This document shows positions 4,199-63,702 of a stretch of 64,000 nt of DNA, piece after piece. Positions within the stretch are counted from its first letter, which is position 1, and each line of letters begins with the position of its first letter. Both the position numbers and the translations under genes were made by a program. This stretch comes from Patescibacteria group bacterium (GTDB lineage Bacteria > Patescibacteriota > Microgenomatia > UBA1400 > CG1-02-47-37), in assembly GCA_034718535.1 (NCBI GenBank), contig JAYEMX010000064.1, forward strand, positions 4,328-68,327. Reading direction: 5' to 3'. Below the pieces are notes generated by a model. That model did no database searches. It worked only from the letters and a program-made list of their open reading frames with translations, and was not told the DNA's origin.

Positions 4199-4420
4199 TT
4201 ATTTTAATCTGTAAACGATTCGACCTTTGTCTTGATCGTAAGGAGATTGTTCGACTTTGACTTTATCTCCCGGAAGAACGCGAATTCTATACATTCGCAT
4301 TTTACCGCCCAAGTGACAAAAAATTGTTTTGTCTGAGTTGTTAATTTTTACTTTAAAAGTAGCGTTGGGAAGATTCTCAAGGACTACACCCTCTACTTCT
4401 ATAATGTCTTTCTGGCTCAT
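4199..4420 (-). CDS. infA: Translation initiation factor IF-1
   Basis: S1-like IF-1 sequence ([33 protein letters not shown]). Confidence 0.92.
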
Positions 4421-28625: not shown

Positions 28626-28659
28626 TAAAAAACAGAAAAAACGGGTGACTAACCCGTTT
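28626..28659 (-). terminator. Intrinsic-terminator-like hairpin (aaacgggt-uaguc-acccguuu) plus UUUUUCUGUUUUUU, ending 5 nt before the rpoB AUG
   Basis: Read on the minus strand; no SD before rpoB. Confidence 0.45.
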
Positions 28660-28817
28660 GTTTGGATTTAAAACTAAATTAAGATGTTAAGGTTGTGAAT
28701 ATAAATCACTTTTTTCCTTTATTGACTTTTTAAAAAGTATTTTTAAGAAAGGGACGAACAAGACCTAGCCTGATAACAGGCTATGATTAAAGTATATTAA
28801 CAGATAACCAGAGAAAG

Positions 28818-29771
28818 TCAAGGAGAAAGATATTTTTTTATATTAGCATTGTGACCGGCAAGATCCTTGGCATAGTGATTATAACCACCGGAATCTGAGA
28901 CATAATATAGATAATTGGTGTTGGCGGGAGCAGTAGCGGCTTTTAGGGTTTCCAGGCCGGGATTTGATATTGGAGCTGGAGGAAGGCTTGAATTTTGATA
29001 GGTATTGTAAGGCGAAGGGGTTTTTAAATCTTTTAAAGTTAAATTGTTTGGCCACCAACCTCCTTCTTTACCTAAGATGTATTGAACAGTGGCGTCTATT
29101 TGTAGAGCCATATTAATATCTAAACGATTGTGAATAACACTAGAAACTAGAGATTTATCTTTTTGATGTTTGGCTTCTCTTTCGATTAAACTAGCCAAAA
29201 TAATGGTGTTTTTGTCTTGAGTAGGGCTTTTTTGATTAAAAGTTTTTAGTAAAAGATCTATAACGTCTTGGATTGAAGCAGTTTGAGGAATAAGATAAGT
29301 ATCCGGAAAAAGATGACCTTCATAGGGTTTGGCTTGAATAATAAAATCATTTTTAGTGAAGTTGGTGGTTTTTTCTTGTAATCGTTCGGCAATTTGCTCA
29401 ACTCTAAGGCCTTCGGGGAAAGTAATCCAAAAATCTAAACTACCATGAGTTAATGATTCAATAATAGTTTCTAAATCCATAGAAGGAGAAAGTTGAAAAT
29501 CCCCGGCCTGAAGTTTATTTGAATAGTTTTTTTGGTCGACAAATAGTTTAAAAGCTAAGTCTGATTTAATTAATTTAGCTTGTTTTAAGCGCTTGGCAAT
29601 ATTAGAAGTAGCTTGACCTTTTGGAATAACAAAAACTTGAGTTGAGGTAATTTTTGGATTAATCGGTTTAATTACCCATTGATACCAACCAATAGTGGTA
29701 AGAAAAAGAATAATCAACAAGATTAACCCTAGAAAGATAAGCTTTTTTAACATTAGTCTAAACTTCTTCAA
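28818..29771 (-). CDS. mltG: Endolytic murein transglycosylase MltG (YceG family)
   Basis: N-terminal TM then YceG-like domain. Confidence 0.75.
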   Translation of the reverse strand: MKKFRLMLKKLIFLGLILLIILFLTTIGWYQWVIKPINPKITSTQVFVIPKGQATSNIAKRLKQAKLIKSDLAFKLFVDQKNYSNKLQAGDFQLSPSMDLETIIESLTHGSLDFWITFPEGLRVEQIAERLQEKTTNFTKNDFIIQAKPYEGHLFPDTYLIPQTASIQDVIDLLLKTFNQKSPTQDKNTIILASLIEREAKHQKDKSLVSSVIHNRLDINMALQIDATVQYILGKEGGWWPNNLTLKDLKTPSPYNTYQNSSLPPAPISNPGLETLKAATAPANTNYLYYVSDSGGYNHYAKDLAGHNANIKKYLSP

Positions 29772-29958
29772 ATAAAGCGCGACGATACTTTTTGGTTTTT
29801 AAATCATGAATAAAAATACGACCACACTTGCAGGTAATTTTTTCTCTTTGATTGCTTAATTTTTTTGATTTGCCATCTTTTAACGGCATGCCACAACCAA
29901 CACATTGACCGCGAGAAAGCAACCAAGCCTGAACAGGTGCAATAACATTTTTAAACAT
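29758..29958 (-). CDS. Small zinc-ribbon protein (CxxC...CxC), hypothetical
   Basis: Four Cys in two pairs; overlaps the mltG start. Confidence 0.4.
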   Translation of the reverse strand: MFKNVIAPVQAWLLSRGQCVGCGMPLKDGKSKKLSNQREKITCKCGRIFIHDLKTKKYRRALFEEV

Positions 29959-29999
29959 AGATAGTCTCCTTTATAAAGATTATTAATAGATTTATTTTA

Positions 30000-30389
30000 T
30001 CAGTGTTTAGATAAGTCATCAAGATAAGATTGAAGGATTATGGTGGCGGCAATTTTATGGTCTTGGCGGCGTTTTTTTTGCGGAGCTTGAGCCTGGATCA
30101 TTTTAATCTTAGCTTCGTAGCTTGATAGGGTTTCGTCTTGGTAGTAAATAGGGAGATTGGCCAACTGACTAAGTTTAGTGGCAAATGTTTTTATTTTTGG
30201 AGCTAATTTTCCTTGAGTAATACCAATAACCATAGCTTCAATTTCATACTCTTTAATTATTTGAAGTAAAAACCGAAATATTTTTTTTCCCGAAAAATAA
30301 GTTTTTTGAGTTAAGGGAAAAGCTAAGGGTCCTTGAGCTAAGCTTAAGCCAAGATGTTTTAGGCCAAAATCTATACCGAGATAGTTCAT
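30000..30389 (-). CDS. ruvX: Putative pre-16S rRNA nuclease / Holliday-junction-resolvase-like YqgF (RuvX); start at MNYLGIDFG
   Basis: N-terminal GIDFGLKHLGLSLA matches the YqgF/RNase H-like fold start. Confidence 0.7.
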   Translation of the reverse strand: MNYLGIDFGLKHLGLSLAQGPLAFPLTQKTYFSGKKIFRFLLQIIKEYEIEAMVIGITQGKLAPKIKTFATKLSQLANLPIYYQDETLSSYEAKIKMIQAQAPQKKRRQDHKIAATIILQSYLDDLSKH

Positions 30390-31171
30390 ATCTCCGATAA
30401 TCTGGCTTTGACTATACCTCGGCGCCAATAAGTTCCGGGAGGAGTACAAGTAACTAAAGTCAGTTCTTTTTGATTATAGTGTTGTTCAAGAATGTTAATT
30501 TCGTCCGGAGCTACTTCGTAATAATCGTAAACCGTGTATTTATAAGAAATGCCATCATAATTAATAAAGACTTCATTTCCATTATCTAGGGTGGGAAGTA
30601 GAGAAAAAATAGCACGATAAGATTGGGGGTTGTAAAACTGAGGTAAAATAGAATGACCAAAGATAACTGAGTTACCGGCCTCCCCCGGATATGCGGTACC
30701 ACCATAATGGATTAAGCTGGTATTAAGGTCATCACCTCCAATAGCCACAACAGCGTTTTTAATTCTTAATCTGGGAATACTTAAAGTATAATGAGTAATT
30801 CTTGATGGAGAAAGAAGAGTTTGGGGTTTAGTAAAATTAAACCAGTTATTAACTTTTGAGTAATTAACAATTGAGTTTTCATTGGTGGTTTGGTTAGCCA
30901 GAACTTGGGGATTATTTGGGGAAATCGGATCTTGGATTGGGCTGATAAATTTGGGTTTTTTAGTACTTGTCATGGTTAGTTCATGAGAAATAATTGGGTA
31001 GCCAACAGAAATTAAAAGAGAGGCACCAACCGTAATCATGATAGTGGGAATTAATTTTTTTAAGTTAAAGAAGAATTGATGTTTTTGATTTTGAATAATA
31101 GTGGTTGGATTTGAGATCGGAGCTTTAGTATAGATAATACTCATATTTATATTATTCTGTTTTGAGCTCAA
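30386..31171 (-). CDS. Sortase-family transpeptidase, membrane-anchored
   Basis: VIFGHS (His) and LTLVTCTP (TLxTC Cys) motifs; N-terminal TM. Confidence 0.75.
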   Translation of the reverse strand: MSSKQNNINMSIIYTKAPISNPTTIIQNQKHQFFFNLKKLIPTIMITVGASLLISVGYPIISHELTMTSTKKPKFISPIQDPISPNNPQVLANQTTNENSIVNYSKVNNWFNFTKPQTLLSPSRITHYTLSIPRLRIKNAVVAIGGDDLNTSLIHYGGTAYPGEAGNSVIFGHSILPQFYNPQSYRAIFSLLPTLDNGNEVFINYDGISYKYTVYDYYEVAPDEINILEQHYNQKELTLVTCTPPGTYWRRGIVKARLSEI

Positions 31172-33347
31172 TTAAAATATTTTTGGTGACACGAGGTAGG
31201 GTTTTTATTTTTTTAGGTAGATTTGGAGTAATGGAAATGTCGGCTTTAATAAAGCTTGGTAGGGTGGCTAAATAATCTTGGATAATGTTAGGATACTTCC
31301 CTTTTAAATTATTTTTAATATCAGTGAAGTCAAGTTTGGGAATTAGTTTTGCCTTAAAATCAACATCAATGGTAGCAGTATTGTTTTGGTTTAAAATGGC
31401 CGGAGCTATTTTAACTTCACTATTTTGACTAATCTCGTAGTTAGAAGGAACTTTTTCTTTTATCGCCTGCTGAAGAAGCAAATTAAGGTCATTTTGATTA
31501 TATGAAAGGGCAGAATATTCTAAATTAGCTTGTAAGGTTAAATTTTTTGTTTCTTCATCAATGTCATGACTAAAGGATTTACTAATTAAGTCATCTTGAT
31601 CTTTAACATCTACTAAAGAAAGTCCTGCTCCTAATTTCTGTTGTAAATTAGAGGCGGCCTGCTCTTTTAAATTAGATGTTAGGGCTAGAAGTAAAGTGGC
31701 TTGATCCTCTTTACTTACGGCTTTAACCTCTCTGGCGATACCACCCGACAAACCATCAATAACTTTGGCTGAGTAGTTATCTTCTGAAAATTGTTTAAAG
31801 CTCATGCTGACACCTGAGGATAAATTGCCATCGGGACCAATTGAGCTGGCGGTGACCTTACCAATGGCTTTACCAAAAGTGATAGTAACACCATCACCTG
31901 TGTCGGTTGATGATGAAGAAGTGGCAGTAATCTCTTCGTCAAGAGTGTACTTTAAGTTATCGGGGCCAATTAAAACAGAGCCGGCTGAAAAAGTTTTAGT
32001 ATTATCGGTTTTGTTATAAATAGTAATATCTCCTTTGGCTGGATCACCGATTAAACTGATTCCGGTAGTAGGAATAGATTTTGAGCCTTTAACTGAAATA
32101 TCAACAGATTCTCCCGGTAAAATACCTTTTTCCGGATCTAAAATAGTAGCTTTAGGGTCAATAGTGAGGGTAAGATTTTCATCAATAGTTTTTGGTTCAA
32201 TATAAAGAATTATATTGGCTTTCGGAATATACCAATAAGCAGAAAAAAGGCCAATAAATAAAGTTATAAAAGCCATACTAATTATGGTGAAGGTTTTGGA
32301 AGTTTTTTTGAATTTAAAAATTGATTTAAGTTTAGAAAATAAATTAGAAAAGGTTTTGAGAAGTTTTGAGAAAAAGCCGATTATTTTTAATTTTAAACCG
32401 AATTTAGGTTTGACAGAATTTGAAACCTCAGTTTGTAGGTCTGGTTCTTTTTTAATTGATGGTGGTAAGGGTTTAGTTAATGGTTTAATATTTTTAGCTA
32501 TATCGGTAGGAGAAAAACCAAAAGATTCAGCAGTGGCTTCTGTTTTTTGGGGGACAGGTTCATGCTTTTTTTTTGGTGAAGGCTTAATATCAAAACCTAA
32601 TGATTTGGCAACTTCACTACCACCAGCAAGGGCAACCGCTTTTATGGAAGCATTTTCAGGCAAACTTTCGACTTTTGGAAAGTGAATAAATGGAAGCTTT
32701 TCCTCCCAGTCATAGGACATTAATTGTTGTTTGTCTTCTTCAAAATCTTTTTTACCATTATAAAGAATCATTCTTGAAGGCAAGGTGTCAATTTTATTAA
32801 ATCTTGACAAGCCTTCTTCAACATCAGGACCCAAATCCCCACTTCTACCAATTAACTTAACGCCAATAATTTTACCAAGTTTAACTAAGGATAGATTAAG
32901 TTCTGAGTCTGATAATCTTAAAAAGATGGCATTTGGAGGGGTACCTTCTTCTATTTTTAAATACTTAATAACGGCGGTATCAGTAACCACAAAGCCAAGG
33001 GGTTTTAATTCAAGTTCTTGACAAATTTTTTTAAGAAGGGCTTTTTTTTCACTCAAAATATCTTCTGATTCTATCCAAGTTTCAGGTAAGCCAAAGATTA
33101 CTCCCGAAGGCTCTTTTTCTAAATTTTTAGAGGCTTTAGAAATAGATTTATCAACGGCATTGAGTAAATTTTCCGAAGTTTTTCCATCCCATTGATTGAT
33201 TGGGCCAATTTTAACTATTTTGGTGTGGCCGTCGAGAACAGTCCAGACTGCGCTTTTGACTATATCGTCACTAATCTCCAAGGCAAAAAATTGCTCTGGA
33301 GCTTCTTCTTTGTTTTTTAATTTAGTGAGCAGATTTTTTAATTCCAT
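31152..33347 (-). CDS. Large membrane protein: N-terminal cytoplasmic FtsA/PilM-like (actin-fold-like) segment, one TM, then a large Ser/Thr/Asn-rich extracytoplasmic domain
   Basis: Residues 20-200 loosely resemble FtsA/PilM N-terminal subdomains; TM FITLFIGLFSAYWYIP. Confidence 0.35.
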   Translation of the reverse strand: MELKNLLTKLKNKEEAPEQFFALEISDDIVKSAVWTVLDGHTKIVKIGPINQWDGKTSENLLNAVDKSISKASKNLEKEPSGVIFGLPETWIESEDILSEKKALLKKICQELELKPLGFVVTDTAVIKYLKIEEGTPPNAIFLRLSDSELNLSLVKLGKIIGVKLIGRSGDLGPDVEEGLSRFNKIDTLPSRMILYNGKKDFEEDKQQLMSYDWEEKLPFIHFPKVESLPENASIKAVALAGGSEVAKSLGFDIKPSPKKKHEPVPQKTEATAESFGFSPTDIAKNIKPLTKPLPPSIKKEPDLQTEVSNSVKPKFGLKLKIIGFFSKLLKTFSNLFSKLKSIFKFKKTSKTFTIISMAFITLFIGLFSAYWYIPKANIILYIEPKTIDENLTLTIDPKATILDPEKGILPGESVDISVKGSKSIPTTGISLIGDPAKGDITIYNKTDNTKTFSAGSVLIGPDNLKYTLDEEITATSSSSTDTGDGVTITFGKAIGKVTASSIGPDGNLSSGVSMSFKQFSEDNYSAKVIDGLSGGIAREVKAVSKEDQATLLLALTSNLKEQAASNLQQKLGAGLSLVDVKDQDDLISKSFSHDIDEETKNLTLQANLEYSALSYNQNDLNLLLQQAIKEKVPSNYEISQNSEVKIAPAILNQNNTATIDVDFKAKLIPKLDFTDIKNNLKGKYPNIIQDYLATLPSFIKADISITPNLPKKIKTLPRVTKNILIELKTE

Positions 33348-35097
33348 TTTTTAAAGCAACATAAATACGACGCTTGCCGGCGCCGATTGAATCTTGTTTT
33401 ATAATCTTAACACCACCAATTTCCCCTGTCGAGTTAACATGGGGGCCACCACATAGTTCTTTACTGAAATCTCCAATTGAATAAACAGTCACCTTGTCTG
33501 GATAGTTTTCTTTAAAAAAGGCTAAGGCGCCGGAGTTTATAGCTGTTTTTAATTTTTCTATTTTTTTGGTGACAGATAAATCTTTTTTGATTTGTTTGTT
33601 AATTAGGTTTTCGACTTTTTTAAGTTGATCGTCTGTTAACGCTTGGTCGTGAGTGAAGTCAAAGCGCAATCTTTTGGCGGTGATATTACTACCCTCTTGT
33701 TTAATGTGATCTCCTAAAATTTGACGAAGAGTTTGATGAAGTAAATGAGTGGCGGTGTGTAGTTTGGTGGTGGCTTCTGATTGATCTTCTAAACCCCCCT
33801 TAAACATTCCAGCTGAAGCCGATTTAGATTTTTTGGAGTGAGATTTTTTTAGTTTATTAAAATCGGATTTTTTTATTTTAATGTTTTTAGATTTTAAAAT
33901 TTCCTGAGTAATTTCAAAGGGAAAGCCATGGGTTTGGAAAAGGTTAAAGGCAAATTGAGCATCGACTTTTTGACAAGAACCATCCTTGTTAGTAGCCCTA
34001 TCAATTAAGTTTAAACCTTTGTTTAGAGATTTTTGGAATTTATTGATCTCTTTTATTAAGGCTGGTTCATCAATGATTTTGGAAAAATTTTGAGAATTTA
34101 GTTCACCAGTTAGCTGTCTAAACTTAACAGCAGAGCGACGGATTAAACGACGAAGAACATAACCTTGTTGTTTATTTGAAGGTTCTAAGCCTTGATCAAT
34201 CATGGCTTTGGCTGATCGAAGGTGGTCGGCAATAATTCTCATTGGAGTTTTATTTTTGCCTTGATATTTTTTATTGGTAGCTTTTTCGATTGATTTAATA
34301 ATAGGTTTAAAAATATTTATTTGAAATATATCGGGAGTTTTTTGGACAGCTTGAGCTAATCTTTCAAGGCCTCCACCAAAATCAACGTTTTGTTTGGGAA
34401 GTGGCTTTAAAGAATTATTTTTTGTTTTTATGTATTGCATAAAAACCGAATTTCCTATTTCCAAATATCGACCACAATCACAGTTAAGGTGACACTTTTT
34501 ATCTTTATATTCTGATTTTTCATGAAAATTATATTCTTTTCCAAAGTCATAAAAAATTTCCGAATCAGGCCCACCGATTTCTCCAGTTGGCATTTTGTCA
34601 GGCGTGCCGGCCCTTGACCACCAGTTTTTTTCGGCAGGATATTGAAAAATGTGATTATCCTTAATACCCAGAGATTTCCAGATTTTAATAGATTCTTCAT
34701 CTTTTCTAATATTTTTATCTCCTTTAAAAACAGAAATAAAAAGTTTTTCTTTGGGAAGTTTTAAAATATTGGTTAAAAACTCCCAGATCCAAGCAAGTTG
34801 TTCTTTTTTAAAGTAATCTCCCAATGACCAATTACCTAACATTTCAAAATAGGTGGTATGGCGGTTATCTCCAACCTCATCAATATCTTCGGCTCTAAAA
34901 CATGGTTGAGAGTCAACCAGTCTTTTTCCCATTGGATGAGGTTCTCCCTTTAAGTATGGAACTAGTTGTTGCATGCCAGAATTATTAAAAAGAGTGGTGG
35001 GGTCATCTTGTGGAATTAGAGGAGCCGGAGGAATAACTGCGTGTTTTTTGTTGGTAAAAAAATCTAAATAAGCTTTTTTGATCTGATCAGTAGTCAT
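33322..35097 (-). CDS. alaS: Alanine--tRNA ligase, short form (591 aa: catalytic and editing domains, no C-Ala domain)
   Basis: AlaRS class II catalytic core; editing-site HxxxH...CGGPHV near the C-terminus. Confidence 0.8.
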   Translation of the reverse strand: MTTDQIKKAYLDFFTNKKHAVIPPAPLIPQDDPTTLFNNSGMQQLVPYLKGEPHPMGKRLVDSQPCFRAEDIDEVGDNRHTTYFEMLGNWSLGDYFKKEQLAWIWEFLTNILKLPKEKLFISVFKGDKNIRKDEESIKIWKSLGIKDNHIFQYPAEKNWWSRAGTPDKMPTGEIGGPDSEIFYDFGKEYNFHEKSEYKDKKCHLNCDCGRYLEIGNSVFMQYIKTKNNSLKPLPKQNVDFGGGLERLAQAVQKTPDIFQINIFKPIIKSIEKATNKKYQGKNKTPMRIIADHLRSAKAMIDQGLEPSNKQQGYVLRRLIRRSAVKFRQLTGELNSQNFSKIIDEPALIKEINKFQKSLNKGLNLIDRATNKDGSCQKVDAQFAFNLFQTHGFPFEITQEILKSKNIKIKKSDFNKLKKSHSKKSKSASAGMFKGGLEDQSEATTKLHTATHLLHQTLRQILGDHIKQEGSNITAKRLRFDFTHDQALTDDQLKKVENLINKQIKKDLSVTKKIEKLKTAINSGALAFFKENYPDKVTVYSIGDFSKELCGGPHVNSTGEIGGVKIIKQDSIGAGKRRIYVALKNGIKKSAH

Positions 35098-35110: not shown

Positions 35111-35452
35111 TTACTTAGCTAATGGTTTACCGGATTTAACAAAGATGTTTTTTTTGATTTTTGAAACAGTTTTGGTAACTTTTTTTTTGGTTTGGTTTGA
35201 TTTTTTTAGTAAATCTTGATTGGTGTTTTCCAAAGAGTTTTCCAATTTTTTGGCTTTAAGTTTGATGTTTTTTATTAATTCCGGTAGATAAGATTTAGTA
35301 TCATCCAAGTGCTTTGAAAATTCTTTTCGAATTTTTTTGCCTTTTTTTGTTTTATAAAGAAAAGTGGCACCAACCGCAACTGCAGCTCCAAGAGCCAAAC
35401 CAGCTGTGAGGTGTACTGACTTTTTATTTTTTGACATTCTTCTTTTTGTCAA
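35111..35452 (-). CDS. Hypothetical small membrane-anchored protein
   Basis: TM plus K-rich coiled-coil-like tail. Confidence 0.3.
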   Translation of the reverse strand: MTKRRMSKNKKSVHLTAGLALGAAVAVGATFLYKTKKGKKIRKEFSKHLDDTKSYLPELIKNIKLKAKKLENSLENTNQDLLKKSNQTKKKVTKTVSKIKKNIFVKSGKPLAK

Positions 35453-35699
35453 TCAAATTACTAGCTAGTTCAACTAGTTTAGCTCCTTTTTTTAGACCGG
35501 TGACAAATTCAGAGGCTTGCTCAATGGGGTCGGCTACACTTTTAGTAATTCTTTTCATGTCATCCATCATGTCATTGCTTTTTTGAAGAGTTTTTCTAAC
35601 CTCTTCTAAAATTCTAAAAATATAGATAGAAAAGATTACCAGTAGAATAACTAAGATGGTGACTACAACTACTAAAATTATTTGAGATAAAGTTAACAT
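35424..35699 (-). CDS. Hypothetical small membrane protein (DUF948-like organisation)
   Basis: N-terminal TM then helical domain. Confidence 0.3.
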   Translation of the reverse strand: MLTLSQIILVVVVTILVILLVIFSIYIFRILEEVRKTLQKSNDMMDDMKRITKSVADPIEQASEFVTGLKKGAKLVELASNLIDKKKNVKK

Positions 35700-35702
35700 A
35701 AT

Positions 35703-36845
35703 TTATTGTTTTTGCAATTTTCCTACTGTGATAATAACATCATATTCATTATCATCAGTCAAGGGTGTTTGGTTTTTAATGAGATCATAATCTGAATTTA
35801 GAGATCTTTCTATAATTGTCCAAACAGTTTCCGGAGTATTTGTTTTTAACTGAACAGAGGTTTTTTGGTGATCAAGTTCATCGGCGTTGTCAGCTATGAT
35901 TTCCACAAAGTCTTTGGCCTCTAAAATATCCTTGACTGTGCCAGCTACACCCCTACCTCCAGTACCATTTAGGACTAAAATTTTGTAGTCTGATAGAGTT
36001 ACTTCTATCTCCGGTTCTGGCGAGGGTGAAGGCGAGGGTGAAGGAGTTGGGTTTGGAGAAGCTACTATGAGGGGTGAAGGCGAGGGTTTTAGGTTGTTTT
36101 GCAGAGCATTTCTTTGAACTAAAATACCACCAGTGATGAGGGCGCCTAGGGTTAAGGTGACAATAAAAGCAATGATGAGAGTTTTGTTCGGTTTTGGTTT
36201 TAATTTCTTAGGTTCCGAACTATCCTTCACTTCGTTGCGGACCGCTGGAAGTTCGGAACTTTGAGACTTTGATGGTTTAAGTTTGGTGGGTGATAGTTTT
36301 TTAAGAGAAAGGTTAAGAACTTTTTCGTCTCTACCTTTTAAGTCTTTTTTTAAAGCAAGGCCGATGACTGGATTTGGATTGCGAATTTTTGAGATGGTTT
36401 TTGGTTCGATGGCTTGAAGTTTTAAGTTGGCATCAACAAGAGCTTGAGAGATAAGGGTAAAGATTGATTTGACTGGAGCAAAGGCAATAATTTGTTTGTC
36501 TGATTGAGTTTTTCGACCAGTTTCCTTAAAATCCCAGTTTTCATTTTCTAGAATTTCTGGAATTTCGGGTTTGATTTTTTCTTCGATTAACTTTCGCTCA
36601 TCTTTAACTTTAGTGTTAAAGGGGATGTTTAAACTTAAGACATATGATAATTCATCTGAAAGTAAAATTCTGATTGATTTAGTTTTAAGTTGTTTTTTTA
36701 CCTGAACAAAGGCTTTATCCAAAGAGTCTTTACTCCAAGTAATTTCATCTGACTTAATGATGGCAGGGGCCTTACCTGTCTTAACTAGAACAGCTTTAAG
36801 TTTGTCTTTGGTTAGATAGATGATGGGAATTTTTTTGTTAAACAT
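35703..36845 (-). CDS. Hypothetical membrane protein with a PSPSP linker and a C-terminal LytR_C-like domain; carries an in-frame PAL repeat
   Basis: TM LIIAFIVTLTLGALITGGILV; (SP)n linker; C-terminal segment resembles the LytR/CpsA/Psr C-terminal domain. Confidence 0.35.
   Translation of the reverse strand: MFNKKIPIIYLTKDKLKAVLVKTGKAPAIIKSDEITWSKDSLDKAFVQVKKQLKTKSIRILLSDELSYVLSLNIPFNTKVKDERKLIEEKIKPEIPEILENENWDFKETGRKTQSDKQIIAFAPVKSIFTLISQALVDANLKLQAIEPKTISKIRNPNPVIGLALKKDLKGRDEKVLNLSLKKLSPTKLKPSKSQSSELPAVRNEVKDSSEPKKLKPKPNKTLIIAFIVTLTLGALITGGILVQRNALQNNLKPSPSPLIVASPNPTPSPSPSPSPEPEIEVTLSDYKILVLNGTGGRGVAGTVKDILEAKDFVEIIADNADELDHQKTSVQLKTNTPETVWTIIERSLNSDYDLIKNQTPLTDDNEYDVIITVGKLQKQ
36209..36261. 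repeat. PAL element variant (ggttccgaac...gttcggaac) inside the CDS at 35703..36845
   Basis: Inverted arms with a 30-nt spacer, in-frame. Confidence 0.5.
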
Positions 36846-37334: not shown

Positions 37335-38030
37335 ATGATTATTAGGATGCCATCAAAGAATAGGAATAAAGTTTATAAAGAAAACGGATATTATCATGTT
37401 TATAATCGTGGGGTTGATAAACGAAAAATTTTTATGGATGAACAAGATTATGCTGTTTTTTTGCATTTACTAAAGTATTATCTTTCTCCACCCAGCAAAG
37501 AAGACAAACATCCTTTGTCGGATACTTCTACAGCTGTGATTAGGCCTAGGCCAATTGAAAATTTACATCAAGAGGTTAATTTACTTGCTTATTGTTTGAT
37601 GCCAAACCATTTTCATTTATTGATAAAACAAAAAAGTATTGATGGTATGACAAAACTAATTCATAAACTACTAACTATTTATTCAATGTATTTTAATAGG
37701 CGTCATAAACGTATTGGCCATTTGTTTCAAGGTTGTTATAAGGCAGTTTTAGCTGATAATGACGAGCAGGTTTTGCATCTATCTCGATATATACACCTTA
37801 ATCCAGTTAAGCTGACAGGGTCTGACCCTGTCAGGTGGCCATACTCAAGTTTGGCTTATTATTTAGGGGAGAAAACTGCTAAGTGGGTGAAACCTAAAGA
37901 AATACTTGAGTGTTTTGAAAAGATAGAAAAGAATAAACTAACAAATAAAAACTACAATTCTTATAAAGAATTTGTTTTTGACGATAAAAAAGATTCTAAA
38001 GAAACTGTTGGCAGGTTTTCTATTGATTGA
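37335..38030 (+). mobile_element. RAYT-type HUH tyrosine transposase (IS200/IS605 TnpA-like, Y1). The likely true start is MPSKN at 37347, matching the N-terminus of RAYT-2.
   Basis: YHVYNRG...LMPNHFHLL (HUH)...SRYIHLNPVK (catalytic Tyr); flanked by REP-1 copies and carrying one internally. Confidence 0.8.
37812..37834. repeat. REP-1 palindrome ctgacagggtctgaccctgtcag inside the RAYT-1 CDS, encoding LTGSDPVR
   Basis: Perfect palindrome, in-frame. Confidence 0.7.
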
Positions 38031-38063: not shown

Positions 38064-38690
38064 TTATTTGATGATGAGGTGAAGGGTGGTTTGGGTGGAT
38101 TTTTGGCGACGAGAAGTGGATTTTAGTTTGAGTTCCTGAGCGCCTGAGAGTCCATTAAAAACAGTGGTAAAATTACCATCTGATTCAAGATTAATAATTT
38201 TTCCATTTAAAGTAAGAGTGGCATCGTGATTAGTTTTACCTTTAATCAAAACCGGGGTAGCAAGAGTTTGACCATTTTTAGGTTTAAAGACAATTAATTT
38301 GGGTGGGCGATTAAGCTTGTAAAAGGATAAAGCCAGATATGAGGTAAATAAAAGGCCAATAATGATGGCAGTGATAATATTTCGAATGGAAGAAGATGGT
38401 TGCCAGGGAGAATTTAAGGGTTTGGTTAAACCCTTGGGGATAATCTTTTTTTTGCTTTTTTGATAGTCTCTTTTAAAAACAGCAGTGGTTTTATTGGGAT
38501 CTAATCCTAAAAGTTTGGCGTAGTTTTTAATAAAGCCAAGAATATAAGTGTAGGCGGGGAGTTTTTTATATTGATTTCTTTCCAGGGCTTTAATGGTGTT
38601 AACCGGAAGTTTTAGTTTAGATGAAACCGAAGTATAAGTGAGTTTCTTTTTTAGTCTGGCTGTTTTTAGTAAATCCCCTGCTTTTAGCAT
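38064..38690 (-). CDS. rodZ: RodZ-like cytoskeleton protein (N-terminal HTH, TM, C-terminal domain)
   Basis: HTH-XRE-like N-terminus (LLKTARLKKKLTYTSVSSKLKLPVNTIKALE), TM AIIIGLLFTSYLAL. Confidence 0.5.
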   Translation of the reverse strand: MLKAGDLLKTARLKKKLTYTSVSSKLKLPVNTIKALERNQYKKLPAYTYILGFIKNYAKLLGLDPNKTTAVFKRDYQKSKKKIIPKGLTKPLNSPWQPSSSIRNIITAIIIGLLFTSYLALSFYKLNRPPKLIVFKPKNGQTLATPVLIKGKTNHDATLTLNGKIINLESDGNFTTVFNGLSGAQELKLKSTSRRQKSTQTTLHLIIK

Positions 38691-54870: not shown

Positions 54871-55048
54871 CTTATACTTGAGGGTGTATACTGAATTTAA
54901 TGCCTTCAAAAAATGCTTTAAAAATCTATAAAGAAGATTCTTATTATCATATTTATAATCGAGGAGTGGCTAAGGCAAATATTTTTAAAGACAAAAAGGA
55001 TTATAAAGTTTTTCTTGATTATTTGAAAATATATTTATCTCCTGTCGA

Positions 55049-55071
55049 CCTACAAGGAGAGTCCTTGAAGG
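55049..55071. repeat. REP-2 copy inside the RAYT-2 CDS (encodes DLQGESLKV)
   Basis: cctacaaggagagtccttgaagg in-frame. Confidence 0.65.
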
Positions 55072-55352
55072 TTTCACCATCAAGAGAATTGAAAAATTAT
55101 TCAGATGAAATTATCTTGGTTGCTTATTGCTTAATGCCAAACCATTTTCACTTATTAATTCATCAAAAAAATAAGGATTCTATTAATTACTTTATGAGAT
55201 CTTTGGCTACAAAATATTCAAGATATTTTAATACTAGATATGATAGGGTTGGCCCATTATTTCAAGGTGTTTATAAAGCTGTTAAGGTTGACAATGAAGA
55301 TCAGTTGGTTTATTTGACTAAATATATTCATCGAAATCCTATTAATATCCTA

Positions 55353-55375
55353 CCTACGAGGAGAGTCCTTGTAGG
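55353..55375. repeat. REP-2 copy inside the RAYT-2 CDS (encodes LPTRRVLVGY), directly after the NPI(N) motif
   Basis: cctacgaggagagtccttgtagg in-frame. Confidence 0.65.
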
Positions 55376-55547
55376 TTATAAATACTCTAGTTATGGAAAT
55401 TACTTGGGATTATTTAAACAGGTCTGGGTAAAGCCAAATATGATTCTTGGATTGTTTTCTGCCTCTAATAAGTTATTTAGTTATAAAAGTTTTGTGGAAG
55501 AATTAGAAGAAGATTATAGTTCTATAAATAAAATTGTTCTTGATTAG

Positions 55548-59378: not shown

Positions 59379-59918
59379 ATGGCTGCCCAAAAAAAACAAA
59401 TTAATTTGCTCCCTAAGGATAAGTGGGAAGTTGGAATAGTCGGTAAACTGCTGAAGTGGGCTTTAAATATTGGACGCTATGTAGTGGTTTTTACAGAGTT
59501 GATTGTGATTTCCGCTTTTTTGTTTCGTTTTTCATTGGACAGAAAATTGACGGACCTTCGAAAAGAAATGAAACAGAAACAAGAAGTGGTAGTATTTTAT
59601 GAAGATTTTGAAAGTAGTTTTAGAAAAATTCAGAAACAGTTAGAAAATATAAAAGAAACTAATGCTTCCAGCGTTGATGTTGAGTCGATATTGTTAAATA
59701 TCAGTCAAATTACACCGATTGATACTGTTTATAGCAGGATTAATATTGTTGCGGAAGAAGTTTCTTTGGAGGGAGAAACTTTATCTGAAATTGGTTTGGC
59801 TACTTTGTTGGCAAAAGCTCAAGAAAATAAAAAATTCAGTGAAGTTGTTCTTGAAAGTGTAGCTTCGGCAACAGAAAAAAATCAAGTAATAAAATTTAGA
59901 ATGACTTTAGGTTTATGA
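59379..59918 (+). CDS. pilN: Type IV pilus assembly protein PilN-like
   Basis: N-terminal INLLP motif, single TM, coiled-coil periplasmic part. Confidence 0.65.
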   Translation: MAAQKKQINLLPKDKWEVGIVGKLLKWALNIGRYVVVFTELIVISAFLFRFSLDRKLTDLRKEMKQKQEVVVFYEDFESSFRKIQKQLENIKETNASSVDVESILLNISQITPIDTVYSRINIVAEEVSLEGETLSEIGLATLLAKAQENKKFSEVVLESVASATEKNQVIKFRMTLGL

Positions 59919-60556
59919 AATTTGGGAGCAGATTAAATACCAGCAGAGATTACAATAAATATATAAAAAGATTGCAACAATTGTCTTTAAATCCGGTGGC
60001 AAAAGTATCTGGAATTATCAGTTTAACAATTTTTACAGTGGCATTTTTTGGTATTTTTGCCATTTTACCGACTTTTAAAACAGTTGGTTCTTTGTCTAAA
60101 GAGATTAAAGATATTAAGGAAATTAATCAAAAACTTTCTTTAAAAATTAAGGCTCTGGGGAGTGCCGAAGATATTTATAGTCAAGTGGTAAATGATCTTG
60201 AGTTGGTTAATAAAATGCTACCTGAAACAGCAAGTTTTGATCGTTTGGTTTGGCAGATTGAATGGTTAGCGATGAATACCGAGATTGAATTATCATCAGC
60301 TAATTTTGGAGAATTCCAAATAGTAGGTCCGGAAATAATTGAAAATGATTTGGGTAAAATTGAAGTTGAGCTAACTTTAGTTGGTGGTTATTCACAAATA
60401 AAATATTTTGTTAAAAAATTAAATAGAATTGATAGATTGATTTCAATTAATGATGTTAGAATTGCCAATAAATCTTTTTTAAAAAAAGACAATGATGTTT
60501 CTGCCAACATTAAGTTTAATGCTTACTATTTAACTAGTGATATTAATAATTTATGA
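59915..60556 (+). CDS. pilO: Type IV pilus assembly protein PilO-like
   Basis: Short cytoplasmic N-terminus, TM, coiled coil; follows pilN with a 4-nt overlap. Confidence 0.5.
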   Translation: MKFGSRLNTSRDYNKYIKRLQQLSLNPVAKVSGIISLTIFTVAFFGIFAILPTFKTVGSLSKEIKDIKEINQKLSLKIKALGSAEDIYSQVVNDLELVNKMLPETASFDRLVWQIEWLAMNTEIELSSANFGEFQIVGPEIIENDLGKIEVELTLVGGYSQIKYFVKKLNRIDRLISINDVRIANKSFLKKDNDVSANIKFNAYYLTSDINNL

Positions 60557-60897
60557 TCAGTAAAATTTACGAAAATCAGTTAAAAAATCAATTATTTAAA
60601 TTGTCTCTTATGACAATAATAACGGTAATTATCTGGATCGGATTTGCCACTTATGAAAGTTTATCTAAAAGTAAAATTGGTAAAACAACTCATTTACAAA
60701 TTAAACCCTTGACGGCAAGTCTTGATTTTGACACAATAAAAGATATTAAAAGTCGGGAAAAAATTACCAAAGCAGACTGGGATTCTTTGGTTCCGCAACT
60801 GCCAATGAATTTGGTATTGCCTGATATACCGGGAACCGAATCCGGTCAAATTAATAATAATTTGACAGCCAGTAATAGCGGAGAATTGGAAAAGTAG
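60553..60897 (+). CDS. Hypothetical small membrane protein, coupled to pilO
   Basis: TM LSLMTIITVIIWIGFAT. Confidence 0.3.
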   Translation: MISKIYENQLKNQLFKLSLMTIITVIIWIGFATYESLSKSKIGKTTHLQIKPLTASLDFDTIKDIKSREKITKADWDSLVPQLPMNLVLPDIPGTESGQINNNLTASNSGELEK

Positions 60898-60904
60898 CTA
60901 ATTT

Positions 60905-62239
60905 ATGAAAATGCCAGGATCAAAATTTCATTTTCCAACTGCATTGGGCTTGTTTATATTACTGGTGGCAGTCGGGGTGGGTTTATTTTTAGTTAAAACA
61001 AAAACCGGAGTTAAAATTGGAACAGATGAAAGCTTTATTCCCAAACAAGTAAGAATTACTAATGTAAATGAAACAGGGTTTACTGTTTCTTGGTTAACCA
61101 ATGGCTCAATAAATGGATTGGTAAAATATGGTTCTGAATCTAATTCAATTAAACAAAGTGCTTTAGATGATCGAGATCAGATGACAGGAGAGTCAGGCAA
61201 GTTTGAAGTTCATTATGTAACGGTTAAAAATTTAAGTCCAAGTACTAATTACTTTTTTAAATTAGAATCCGGTAAAAAGCAATTTGATAATAATGGCAAA
61301 CCTTTTGAGATAGTTACCGGAGCAGTTCTTGGAACTCCACCGGCGGCCGATCCGGTTTATGGAACAATTTTATCTAGTTCGGGTTCGGGAGCTGAAGGAG
61401 TAATTGTTTATCTTAATATGCCTAATGCAGCTCCAATGTCTGCTTTGGCTAAAACTAATGGTAATTGGGCTTTATCTTTATCTATGGCAAGAACTTCGGA
61501 TTTAGGTAGTTATTTGGTTTACGATACCCAAGCCACAATGATTAATATTTTGGTTCAAGGTGGAAGTGTGGGTAATTCACCAGTAATTACCACTACCAGC
61601 AATGATAGTCCGGTGCCAGACATTACTTTAGGAAAATCTCATGATTTTAGAGATGTGGTAGATGAAAGTATAAATAATTTAGATGCTTCGACAGATGTTG
61701 ATAGTGAGCCCAGCAATAGTGGTTTTGATTTAGCTCCGGTAGCTAGTGGTAGTGCAATGATTACAGAGTCTGGTGAAATAACTTTGGATAATCCAAGCTT
61801 TGAGGGTGAAATAATTAATGCCACTCAACCGGCTTTTATTGGAACCGGATTGCCGGGAACTGTTTTGTCGATAACTGTAAATTCTCAAAATGCTTATACC
61901 GGCTCTACTACTATTGATGAAGATGGTTCGTGGGAGTTTATTCCTTCCGAAGGACTAGAACCCGGAGAGCATGAGGTAACTGTAAATTATATTGATAGTG
62001 AAGGAGATGAAAAAACTTTGACTAGATCATTTTTGATTGCGGCGGCGGGAGAATCTGAAGTACCGGCAATTACGGCAACTGAGTCCGGAAGTGTGGGGTC
62101 GACTTTATCGGGAAGAACAGAACTACCATCAACTGAATCCGGAGTGCCTGATCCGGGGACGTGGGAGGTAACTTTAATGATGTTATTAACTGGCGTTGGT
62201 TTGGTTTTTGGTGGCGTAATTATTAAAAATAGGATATAA
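60905..62239 (+). CDS. Surface protein with an N-terminal signal-anchor, an FN3 (purple-acid-phosphatase N-type) domain and a C-terminal LPSTE + TM + KNRI sorting-signal-like tail
   Basis: ITNVNETGFTVSWLTNG...HYVTVKNLSPSTNYFFKL FN3 pattern; C-terminal ELPSTESG...hydrophobic...KNRI. Confidence 0.45.
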   Translation: MKMPGSKFHFPTALGLFILLVAVGVGLFLVKTKTGVKIGTDESFIPKQVRITNVNETGFTVSWLTNGSINGLVKYGSESNSIKQSALDDRDQMTGESGKFEVHYVTVKNLSPSTNYFFKLESGKKQFDNNGKPFEIVTGAVLGTPPAADPVYGTILSSSGSGAEGVIVYLNMPNAAPMSALAKTNGNWALSLSMARTSDLGSYLVYDTQATMINILVQGGSVGNSPVITTTSNDSPVPDITLGKSHDFRDVVDESINNLDASTDVDSEPSNSGFDLAPVASGSAMITESGEITLDNPSFEGEIINATQPAFIGTGLPGTVLSITVNSQNAYTGSTTIDEDGSWEFIPSEGLEPGEHEVTVNYIDSEGDEKTLTRSFLIAAAGESEVPAITATESGSVGSTLSGRTELPSTESGVPDPGTWEVTLMMLLTGVGLVFGGVIIKNRI

Positions 62240-62247
62240 CTATTTAT

Positions 62248-63702
62248 ATGGATAATGCCCTGCCGACCGGAACCAATAATAATAAGCAAACCGATGATAC
62301 CCAAAATAAAGTTGATATTGCACCGGCTTCTCCTCCACCTGCACCACCACCTTTAGTTGAGCCGGAAAAACCAGAAGAAATTAAGGGTCCAAATCAAGTA
62401 AAAAAAATTGGGAAAAAGATTAAAAAAAATGGGTTAAAAATAGCCGGCGGTTTAATGATGTTTTTATTAGTGGCTGGAGGATTATTTGTTGGTAGAAATA
62501 TAGTTCAAGAAAGACAGGTGATAGAAAAAGAGGCATATGATCCAGGAGCAAGACGTAGATGTTCTGATATATCTGACATTGATGATTGTGGTAATTTTTG
62601 TCATATAGTTGACGGATATGGGTGTAAAAAAATTAATGGAGAATGTAAGGCCTTTTTAGAACCAGCTTGTAAGAAAACACGAGATAATAGTTGTACAGAT
62701 GAGGATTATACAAATAATACTTGTTGTAACAGCTTTTCGAGTGGTAAATGTGATGGTATTTCTGAAGGAAAACGAGGAGATTGCCCGTCAGGACAAGTTT
62801 GTAAGGCTTATGACCATAAATATGGTAATCCTACTTGTTCTTGTGCAAGCGGTATTCCGCCAGGTATGGATTGTGGATCTAAACCAGATCCATTGCCTGA
62901 GTTTGAAGAAACAGGAAGTATAGGCCCTTTTCCAAGAACTGGGAAATTGGTTGTATATCTTTATGGTGAAAACGGTTTAGGAGATGGTAAGTCTGGTTAT
63001 GCTAGTGGTGTAGAAAAACTTAGATTTGATTATAATGGTGAAGTTACAGATGTTGAATTAAATGGTAGTTCAAAAGAAAAAGTGGTAACAGATATTGTAG
63101 TGCAACAAGGTGATTCTATAATTATTACAGATACTTTTGAGCATGATCAAAAAGCCGGGTGTGCCCCTGATCATAGTTTACCTCATCAAGGAATAGGTTG
63201 GATGCCTATTAATTCAGACAATACTTGTGGGACGGGATTACCAGGACCTCCACAAGGTGGAGTTCAAACTCCTTTTGATACCCCAAGTATACTAGCTGGA
63301 ATAGAATGGGCCGAGAGTCTTGGCAATGAATTATTGGCTAAACAATGTTGGGCAGACTGGAGAGAGTGGCCGGGAGATTATGATTTTGAGGACTATTTTT
63401 TAATGTTTTCTTATGAACCGGCTGATGGTCCAGATAATCCATATTGCGAGGATTTAACTTATTCGGGAAATGAAGATTTTGGTGAAGAGCTTAGCTTTAC
63501 TTGCGTTGGTAGTGGAGATTATTATCGTTTTAGGTATATGATTAATGGTGGCTCCCCCATTCTTATTAATCAAGACAATGTTAATGGCAACACCACTAGT
63601 ATAAATTTAAATGAATATGGTGATTGGTTAGTTCAATGTAAGGTTTGTAATTCTAGTAATGTTTGTACTGTTTGGGGTGAGGCAAATGAAATAGCAAATT
63701 AA
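62248..63702 (+). CDS. Cysteine-rich (>30 Cys) type-II membrane-anchored extracytoplasmic protein with a Pro-rich cytoplasmic N-terminus; unknown function
   Basis: TM IAGGLMMFLLVAGGLFVG; dense Cys spacing (CGNFCH, CCNS, CSCASG). Confidence 0.4.
   Translation: MDNALPTGTNNNKQTDDTQNKVDIAPASPPPAPPPLVEPEKPEEIKGPNQVKKIGKKIKKNGLKIAGGLMMFLLVAGGLFVGRNIVQERQVIEKEAYDPGARRRCSDISDIDDCGNFCHIVDGYGCKKINGECKAFLEPACKKTRDNSCTDEDYTNNTCCNSFSSGKCDGISEGKRGDCPSGQVCKAYDHKYGNPTCSCASGIPPGMDCGSKPDPLPEFEETGSIGPFPRTGKLVVYLYGENGLGDGKSGYASGVEKLRFDYNGEVTDVELNGSSKEKVVTDIVVQQGDSIIITDTFEHDQKAGCAPDHSLPHQGIGWMPINSDNTCGTGLPGPPQGGVQTPFDTPSILAGIEWAESLGNELLAKQCWADWREWPGDYDFEDYFLMFSYEPADGPDNPYCEDLTYSGNEDFGEELSFTCVGSGDYYRFRYMINGGSPILINQDNVNGNTTSINLNEYGDWLVQCKVCNSSNVCTVWGEANEIAN

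Follow-up and report, generated by a model that had tools for sequence, protein, structure and literature searches.

A predicted actin-fold membrane protein encoded in an uninterrupted pair with a sortase across Microgenomates

What does a membrane protein of 731 amino acids (aa) do when its gene stands directly before that of a sortase, within a row of housekeeping genes? The question is raised by a locus of a Patescibacteria group bacterium, analysed here within a window of 64,000 nucleotides (assembly GCA_034718535.1, contig JAYEMX010000064.1, forward-strand positions 4,328 to 68,327; Table 1). The gene order on the minus strand is alaS, the 731-aa protein (named P731 in this report; its exact sequence is NCBI locus U9Q63_03025), sortase, RuvX/YqgF, a 66-aa Zn-ribbon-like protein (ZnR), MltG and rpoB. 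An initial annotation of the window had joined four of these genes, by overlapping start and stop codons, into one module that linked a pre-16S nuclease-like protein to a sortase and to a giant protein with an FtsA/PilM-like cytoplasmic N-terminus and a long extracytoplasmic part, and had suggested that this protein may tie division or pilus machinery to sortase-processed surface proteins. The open reading frames (ORFs) for P731, the sortase, RuvX/YqgF and the four-cysteine 66-aa protein were found as described, all on the minus strand. P731 and the sortase form a conserved, never-interrupted gene pair. What is established for P731 is its architecture and this pairing; we tentatively propose, from genomic context and with somewhat less than even confidence, that P731 is a Microgenomates-specific transmembrane scaffold or regulator coupled to the sortase.

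P731 homologues numbered 236, all from Patescibacteria/Microgenomates. Gene order was mapped by tblastn with the window's proteins around the best 80 of 178 relatives, obtained from a scan of one genome per species. These 80 loci covered Beckwith-, Chisholm-, Ames-, Shapiro-, Davies-, Gottesman- and Collierbacteria, together with metagenome-assembled genomes (MAGs) that are evidently mislabelled, with P731 identity down to about 29%. The order alaS-P731-sortase-RuvX-(ZnR)-MltG-RpoB was found in essentially all of them and in a further, more distant P731 member; alaS preceded P731 in nearly all loci, and the sortase lay directly downstream of P731 in 77 of the 79 loci with downstream sequence. 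Synteny across genomes of the candidate phyla radiation (CPR) thus held for the 80 Microgenomates loci. Junctions were then compared, counting as an insertion anything over 300 nucleotides. The P731/sortase junction was interrupted in none of 77 cases, with estimated gaps of at most 74 nucleotides, and the ZnR/MltG junction in none of 51. Insertions were present at alaS/P731 (2/75), sortase/RuvX (6/70), RuvX/ZnR (7/52) and MltG/RpoB (18/54). That the P731/sortase junction was never interrupted while neighbouring junctions accepted insertions supports a coupling of the two genes. The ZnR gene was present in about 52 loci and absent from 14, mostly Daviesbacteria-like, in which RuvX abuts MltG. 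Instead of a four-gene module, the locus is thus better described as RuvX together with two tightly linked pairs, one of P731 and sortase and one of ZnR and MltG.

The place of RuvX in this arrangement appears to be older than the pair. RuvX-(small gene)-MltG is also the gene order of B. subtilis (yrrK BSU27390, yrrL BSU27370; PMC3814617). The RuvX-MltG order is therefore probably inherited, as part of an alaS-ruvX-mltG block, and the P731-sortase pair looks like an insertion into this old housekeeping block, between alaS and ruvX-(small gene)-mltG. We take alaS to lie two genes further on in B. subtilis. With a RuvX-MltG order that appears to predate the pair, the association of RuvX with the sortase, which the initial annotation had treated as a link between a pre-16S nuclease-like protein and a sortase, is probably historical rather than functional, and RuvX would be a neighbour by descent, not a partner; the insertions at sortase/RuvX, set against none at P731/sortase, point the same way.

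To model the N-terminal domain of P731, 28 diverse homologues with 38-72% identity were aligned and the alignment was cut to residues 1-256. The model (pLDDT 88.7, pTM 0.85) had two RNase-H-like halves, with a beta-beta-beta-alpha-beta-alpha-beta-alpha topology twice repeated. Foldseek searches with it returned PilM first (E=1.2e-8), then BT_3980, further PilM chains and FtsA (E=1.4e-7); Ppx/GppA and sugar kinases were also matched, at E about 1e-7 to 1e-6. The nearest structural neighbours of the predicted domain are PilM and FtsA, by a small margin within the ASKHA (actin-like) superfamily. Sequence methods did not detect this relationship. Matches to Pfam PilM (PilM_2), FtsA, MreB, SHS2, kinase and phosphatase families were absent from the 28 N-domains even at E<=10, a profile of the P731 family compared with all PDB sequences gave one spurious match (E=2.7), and hhalign of the N-domain against E. 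coli FtsA gave a probability of 0.2%. The resemblance to PilM and FtsA as modelled thus lies at the level of the fold, where it is invisible to sequence methods. With PilM and then FtsA ranking high in Foldseek, the fold foreseen by the initial annotation was correct, although it comes without a sequence match, without subdomain 1C and without the phosphate-2 motif.

The ATP motifs of the N-domain were placed by the secondary-structure register of the model rather than by structural superposition. In phosphate-1, the position of Asp was Glu in 25 of the 28 members (E24), and Gly was retained in four. The DxGGG of phosphate-2 was absent from all 28: position 144 was Q, R, N, K, E or G, never Asp, and the loop read S/N-S/E/D-T/S where GGG was expected. 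The GG of the adenosine motif (residues 242-243) was invariant. These motifs suggest that the N-domain is no active enzyme but a pseudo-ATPase that binds proteins. Outside the folded domains, residues 1-14 carry a conserved M-E-L-K-N-L-L-x-K-L-K (pLDDT about 41), and the linker behind the N-domain has a single conserved short motif, (L/F)-G-F-x-x-x-D-(I/V), at residues 272-284 (G277, F278, D282); both segments could be docking peptides.

The remainder of P731 crosses the membrane and folds outside. The linker ends in a K/F/L-rich juxtamembrane stretch; a hydrophobic-moment scan for an amphipathic helix beside the membrane had its maximum on a proline-rich stretch, and no such helix is claimed. 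A Kyte-Doolittle scan of P731 gave one transmembrane (TM) segment, of mean 2.01, at residues 350-374. The 17 residues before it hold six K/R and no D/E, and those after it two K/R and three D/E (net -1), which satisfies the positive-inside rule and indicates an N-in/C-out orientation, in agreement with the cytoplasmic N-terminus and long extracytoplasmic part that had been proposed. At the end of the helix, W372 is invariant and Y371 nearly so among the 28 homologues. The model of the outside region (357 residues; pLDDT 89.2, pTM 0.59, with inter-domain geometry uncertain) had a beta-rich part including a barrel, followed by a long helix and two alpha/beta modules. This region had been described as Ser/Thr/Asn-rich; a modest enrichment is indeed present (S+T+N 24.7%, versus 18.2% in the window's long ORFs), but the model folds the region confidently into several domains, so that it is not of low complexity, and 'giant' overstates a protein of 731 aa. 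The barrel coincided with weak matches to Pfam Baseplate_J (PF04865) in 25 of the 28 members (best E=4.2e-5). The window's own P731 reached 11.6 bits, against a cut-off of 21.1, over profile positions 22-114 of 255, and a match to PHROG 6 agreed with that to Baseplate_J. The outside domain was structurally similar to solved baseplate wedge proteins.

P731 was also considered as a substrate of the sortase, and rejected: it lacks a C-terminal TM segment or basic tail. Two candidate sorting signals in it were likewise discarded. The conserved C-terminal TLPR...KN leads into a beta-strand of the fold (residues 724-730), and in the internal 'IPTTG' TG alone is invariant and is located at a hairpin turn.

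The sortase was recognised by Pfam Sortase (PF04203; E=1.2e-23, 83.6 bits versus a cut-off of 26.6) and TIGR01076 (55.3 bits versus 39.35). It has an N-terminal TM helix (residues 39-62) with the catalytic domain outside, and H173, C242 and R251 are kept in at least 90% of 78 orthologues; by this conserved His-Cys-Arg triad, the enzyme is predicted to be catalytically intact. It thereby shares the fold signature, N-terminal membrane anchor and triad of the Gram-positive housekeeping and pilus sortases (classes A-F). However, all NCBIfam sortase class models remained far below their cut-offs, including GN (bits/cut-off: C 52.1/160, E 44.9/160, D 38.5/165, F 30.5/166), and the enzyme is therefore left unclassified. 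A scan of about 1.1 Mb of Microgenomates DNA for proteins with a C-terminal TM segment and basic tail yielded too few cases to define a sortase motif. To our knowledge, no described sortase has a dedicated actin-fold partner, and our literature search found no description of the P731 family or of such a partner. The sortase family is reported as present in almost all Microgenomates and patchy elsewhere in CPR, and many families enriched in Microgenomates are unannotated membrane proteins (PMC6744442). The distribution of P731 matches that reported for the sortase (PMC6744442).

Taken together, context and architecture suggest that P731 is a membrane-spanning partner for attaching surface proteins. 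P731 would link a cytoplasmic actin-fold module to an extracytoplasmic assembly, as PilM-PilN, GspL and FtsA do. The domain outside the cell would serve at the membrane surface to gate the sortase or set its position, or to hold sortase substrates or nascent wall, and the inside domain, degenerate in its nucleotide motifs, would serve as a protein-binding platform for a cytoplasmic partner rather than as an ATPase. By analogy, the mode of action of P731 may be closest to that of GspL, or of a PilM-PilN fusion. In type II secretion, GspL/EpsL has the same architecture, with a cytoplasmic actin-like domain, which is nucleotide-free, one TM helix and a folded outside domain. The likeness is confined to architecture, however: P731 gave neither a sequence match (T2SSL/GspL_C) nor a top-ranking structural match to GspL, and GspL keeps an SHS2/1C-like domain, a ferredoxin-like periplasmic domain and the partner ATPase GspE, in contrast to the Baseplate_J barrel and sortase of P731. 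BT_3980 (3HRG, 257 aa) and EutJ (3H1Q, 272 aa) are compact ASKHA proteins of unknown or accessory function; unlike P731, they are soluble, with no membrane anchor or outside domain, and their functions are unrelated to that of P731 or unknown. P731 would thus join the bitopic envelope scaffolds that have an actin fold, among which its combination of domains and its partner enzyme would be new.

Several observations weigh against a scaffold coupled to the sortase. In two loci (L079 and L080), no sortase adjoins P731. Collinearity across the clade extends over the whole region, from RNase J and FtsK via alaS to rpoB; some of the P731-sortase adjacency is therefore inherited. P731 has no sorting signal of its own, and any interaction with the sortase, physical or functional, is read from context; we infer such an interaction, as we do a lost ATPase activity and the direction in which information flows, and the folds are models. 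Within the N-domain, the charged residues D66, D175, E178, R182, R192, H222, K225 and E227 are invariant and may equally mark an unrecognised active site, and the argument for lost nucleotide binding is built on motifs in secondary-structure register, not on superposition or assay. The genomic points among these would also be expected if the adjacency were frozen housekeeping order and P731 an envelope protein (e.g. wall- or S-layer-associated, or a receptor) independent of the sortase. We regard this as unlikely, though as the likeliest of the alternatives. At the same divergence, the sortase/RuvX, RuvX/ZnR and MltG/RpoB junctions have taken the insertions counted above and P731/sortase none; both proteins are membrane-anchored with domains outside; and the distribution of the sortase family, reported from almost all Microgenomates (PMC6744442), parallels that of P731.

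P731 could instead be a PilM-type component of a pilus or surface-filament alignment complex, acting with the pilN-pilO genes 26 kb away. It shares the actin-like two-lobe fold with PilM (P. aeruginosa 5EOU/5EOY, T. thermophilus 2YCH), but its model has no subdomain 1C, there being no room for one between strand 3 and helix 1. In solved PilM:PilN complexes (2YCH/5EOU), 1C forms half of the groove for the PilN peptide. P731 further differs from PilM in lacking the phosphate-2 motif, any PilM_2 (PF11104) signal and a PilN- or PilO-like outside domain, and from the PilM/PilN pair in fusing actin-like module and membrane segment in one chain. Its gene is flanked by alaS and sortase, not by pilN, pilO, pilB and pilC, and is not adjacent to the pilN-pilO locus; moreover, PilM is reported to be common in CPR (PMC6744442). 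A PilM-type role is accordingly improbable.

The distant locus itself comprises pilN (with a ...QINLLP... N-terminus), pilO, a 114-aa small TM protein, a 444-aa fn3/Big_13 surface protein and a 484-aa Cys-rich protein; pilM, pilB and pilC were not found beside it. This cluster recurs in distant Microgenomates (L082, 8452..13152; L085, 10001..15203) and adjoins MurJ, in L085 together with PMT and LCP genes. Across 20 homologues, the C-terminus of the 444-aa family conserves R-[TV]-S-x-P-[SA]-T-x-[SG]-G-[VI]-P-x-x-G, followed by a TM segment and K/R, and a neighbouring protein in L082 (13040..13152) ends in ELPKAG and a TM segment. Both endings look like sorting signals, making these proteins possible sortase substrates; NCBIfam LPXTG and PEP-CTERM models matched the candidate tails only below threshold. 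That P731 might be the 'missing PilM' of the cluster is an attractive idea but a weak one, because P731 lacks the PilN-binding 1C subdomain. A bolder and rather improbable proposal is that P731, the sortase and the pilM-less pilN-pilO cluster make up a previously undescribed hybrid surface-assembly machine of Microgenomates, in which a PilM-like cytoplasmic domain, fused across the membrane to a baseplate-type barrel, would gate or position the sortase-catalysed anchoring or polymerisation of Ig-like and Cys-rich surface proteins whose C-termini carry [LVI]-P-x-x-G, a TM segment and a basic tail. If true, a type-IV-pilus-style alignment platform would be linked to sortase chemistry.

Somewhat less probable than a PilM-type role is that of a divisome or wall-synthesis adaptor, with P731 as a membrane-integrated analogue of FtsA working with MltG and peptidoglycan synthesis, and the sortase as one client. 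FtsA (S. aureus 3WQT, E. coli 7Q6D) is an ATP-binding, polymerising protein that includes a 1C subdomain and is attached by an amphipathic helix rather than a TM helix. Its 1C is needed for polymerisation and for the recruitment of late division proteins, and its 2B is the site of the FtsZ peptide. In contrast, the P731 model lacks 1C, its 2B region is vestigial, and the protein has a TM helix but no FtsA or SHS2 profile match (PF14450/PF02491). The gene lies in neither a dcw nor an ftsZ context, and its MltG neighbourhood is explained by the older ruvX-mltG order. The proposed link to division or pilus machinery thus found no footing in the locus, which is part of no dcw cluster and no type IV pilus cluster.

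The invariant charged residues, the Foldseek matches to Ppx/GppA and sugar kinases and the invariant adenosine-motif GG would also fit an active ASKHA kinase or phosphatase acting on a small-molecule or lipid-linked substrate, which would make P731 a transmembrane signalling enzyme. Against this stand the absence of DxGGG from all 28 members, the retention of the phosphate-1 Gly in just four of them and the lack of kinase or phosphatase profile matches, and we consider it very improbable. The reading of P731 as a remnant of a prophage or tailocin baseplate is effectively refuted: the likeness to Baseplate J/gp47/T4 gp6-type wedge proteins is limited to the barrel (about 100-150 residues), with the rest of the profile unmatched and the window protein scoring under the Pfam threshold; GlxA, a cellular enzyme, shares that barrel (PF21110); P731 sits in a housekeeping operon conserved across a whole class and, besides the barrel, comprises an actin-fold domain in the cytoplasm and a TM helix; and no tail, sheath or tube genes lie nearby. 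Consistent with this, a search of 2.9 million viral contigs found no relatives, and P731 is a cellular rather than a viral protein. Returning to P731 as a scaffold coupled to the sortase, the initial observation proved largely real: its fold inference and synteny were confirmed, and its functional story, read from context, is plausible.

The junctions within the locus bear on how far its genes are expressed together. The claim of four genes with overlapping start and stop codons was correct at sortase/RuvX, where an ATGA is common to stop and start, but RuvX and the ZnR gene are separated by 41 nucleotides containing an AAGGAG Shine-Dalgarno sequence. P731 and sortase overlap by 20 nucleotides, and ZnR and MltG by 14, provided that the TTG starts are used; with the ATG starts, gaps of 7 and 4 nucleotides result. 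For the sortase, homologous alignments favour the ATG at 31144 (252 aa) as the more likely start. The overlap of P731, of 26 nucleotides between its ATG and the 3' end of alaS, falls outside the module as first drawn, and the end placed at 29758 excluded MltG, which is tightly joined to the ZnR gene. The clearest terminator-like hairpins were found only after mltG (28783..28766 and 28659..28639). No convincing terminator-like site was found between the genes from alaS to mltG; one weak match (33385..33368) lies within the 3' end of alaS, just upstream of the P731 start. A promoter scan gave 32 matches, compared with 26.7 +/- 6.4 in shuffled sequence, which is not above chance, and therefore no internal promoter is claimed. 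The genes are tightly packed, and alaS through mltG are probably co-transcribed, with mltG as the last gene of the unit.

Table 1. Genes, domains and neighbouring features of the P731 locus, in window positions
Feature	Position	Strand	Basis or remark
P731	31152..33347	-	ORF, 731 aa; no Pfam/NCBIfam match above cut-off
P731 residues 1-14, conserved segment	33305..33347	-	Outside folded domains
P731 residues 1-256, predicted cytoplasmic minimal actin-like (ASKHA) domain	32580..33347	-	Model
P731 residues 257-349, variable K/P/S-rich cytoplasmic linker	32301..32579	-	Alignment, column counts, composition
P731 residues 272-284, linker motif	32496..32534	-	Outside folded domains
P731 residues 350-374, single TM helix, N-in/C-out	32226..32300	-	Kyte-Doolittle scan, flank charges
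P731 residues 375-731, folded extracytoplasmic region	31155..32225	-	Model
P731 residues 434-541 (about), Baseplate_J/GlxA-like beta-barrel	31725..32048	-	Model and weak profile match
Sortase, membrane-anchored	30386..31171 (TTG start, 261 aa) or 30386..31144 (ATG start, 252 aa)	-	ORF and Pfam/NCBIfam
RuvX/YqgF-family nuclease (predicted)	30000..30389	-	129 aa; ORF and Pfam/NCBIfam
Zn-ribbon-like protein, four-cysteine CxxC...CxC	29758..29958	-	66 aa; ORF
MltG/YceG endolytic transglycosylase	28818..29771 (TTG start, 317 aa) or start 29753 (ATG)	-	N-terminal TM
Alanyl-tRNA synthetase (alaS)	33322..35097	-	591 aa; ORF; gene upstream of P731
Two small membrane proteins (YtxH-like, DUF948-like)	35111..35699	-	Between LytR_C protein and alaS
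LytR_C protein	35703..36845	-	380 aa; three genes upstream of alaS
Y1 transposase domain, partial	37335..38030	+	231 aa
HTH_25 protein	38064..38690	-	208 aa
Y1 transposase domain, partial	54900..55547	+	215 aa
pilN-pilO	59379..60556	+
pilN-pilO cluster	59379..63702	+
Tail of 444-aa protein	62100..62239	+	C-terminus

Of the genes downstream of the sortase, RuvX is a member of the RuvX/YqgF family by profile (Pfam RuvX, PF03652, E=5.4e-23, 82.3 bits versus a cut-off of 29.2; TIGR00250, 58.7 bits versus 43.25), its nuclease and 16S-processing role being a prediction. MltG matched Pfam YceG (E=1.8e-78) and TIGR00247 (226 bits), and the 66-aa protein had no Pfam or NCBIfam family match above threshold. 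Upstream, the alaS product is short: alanyl-tRNA synthetases of model bacteria have about 870 aa. The orthologue in L083, which carries Pfam tRNA-synt_2c and tRNA_SAD, is similarly short (612 aa), and this suggests a loss of the C-terminal domain. The two small membrane proteins before alaS are YtxH-like (113 aa, E=3e-10) and DUF948-like (91 aa), the latter gene being retained upstream of alaS in many loci. The 380-aa bitopic protein beyond them, conserved only in closer relatives, resembles P731 in layout. Its N-domain (about 215 residues) is cytoplasmic, and a TM segment (219-244) and a spacer rich in Pro and Ser separate it from a LytR_C domain on the outside (E=9.7e-7); by hhalign, no sequence-profile relation to the P731 N-domain was detected (probability 0.2%). 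An HTH_25 (RodZ-type helix-turn-helix) protein is encoded directly downstream of FtsK, a pair conserved in L083. Two ORFs on the strand opposite to nearly all other genes hold partial IS200-like Y1 transposase domains (E=1.2e-9 for the 231-aa and E=2.1e-11 for the 215-aa product) and could be RAYT-like or domesticated copies.

The P731 family reaches well beyond this locus. At 50% identity, a profile of the N-domain matched 1520 clusters with E<=1e-3, and 860 of E<=1e-30. Most of the 150 clusters listed had an N-terminal position of the domain and a length of about 660-820 aa; the about 20 shorter ones are probably fragments. In databases the homologues are called 'hypothetical protein' or sometimes 'baseplate J/gp47 family protein', the latter because of the weak partial Baseplate_J matches. 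Public records of many MAGs with this clearly CPR-type locus (among them L002, L004 and L009 to L011) bear the titles 'uncultured Pseudomonadales', 'Gammaproteobacteria' or 'Bathyarchaeia', apparently taxon labels that were assigned automatically and wrongly.

Sortases are treated as stand-alone membrane enzymes, and the Microgenomates are uncultured, with a poorly known envelope. If P731 is indeed coupled to the sortase, a partner that reaches into the cytoplasm would provide a new control over where and when surface proteins are attached. The family is large, with at least 1,300 clusters at 50% identity, and its domain combination new, under names that are either 'hypothetical' or misleading; describing it correctly would mend an annotation error that is widespread, and would provide a concrete, testable candidate for the organisation of the CPR envelope.

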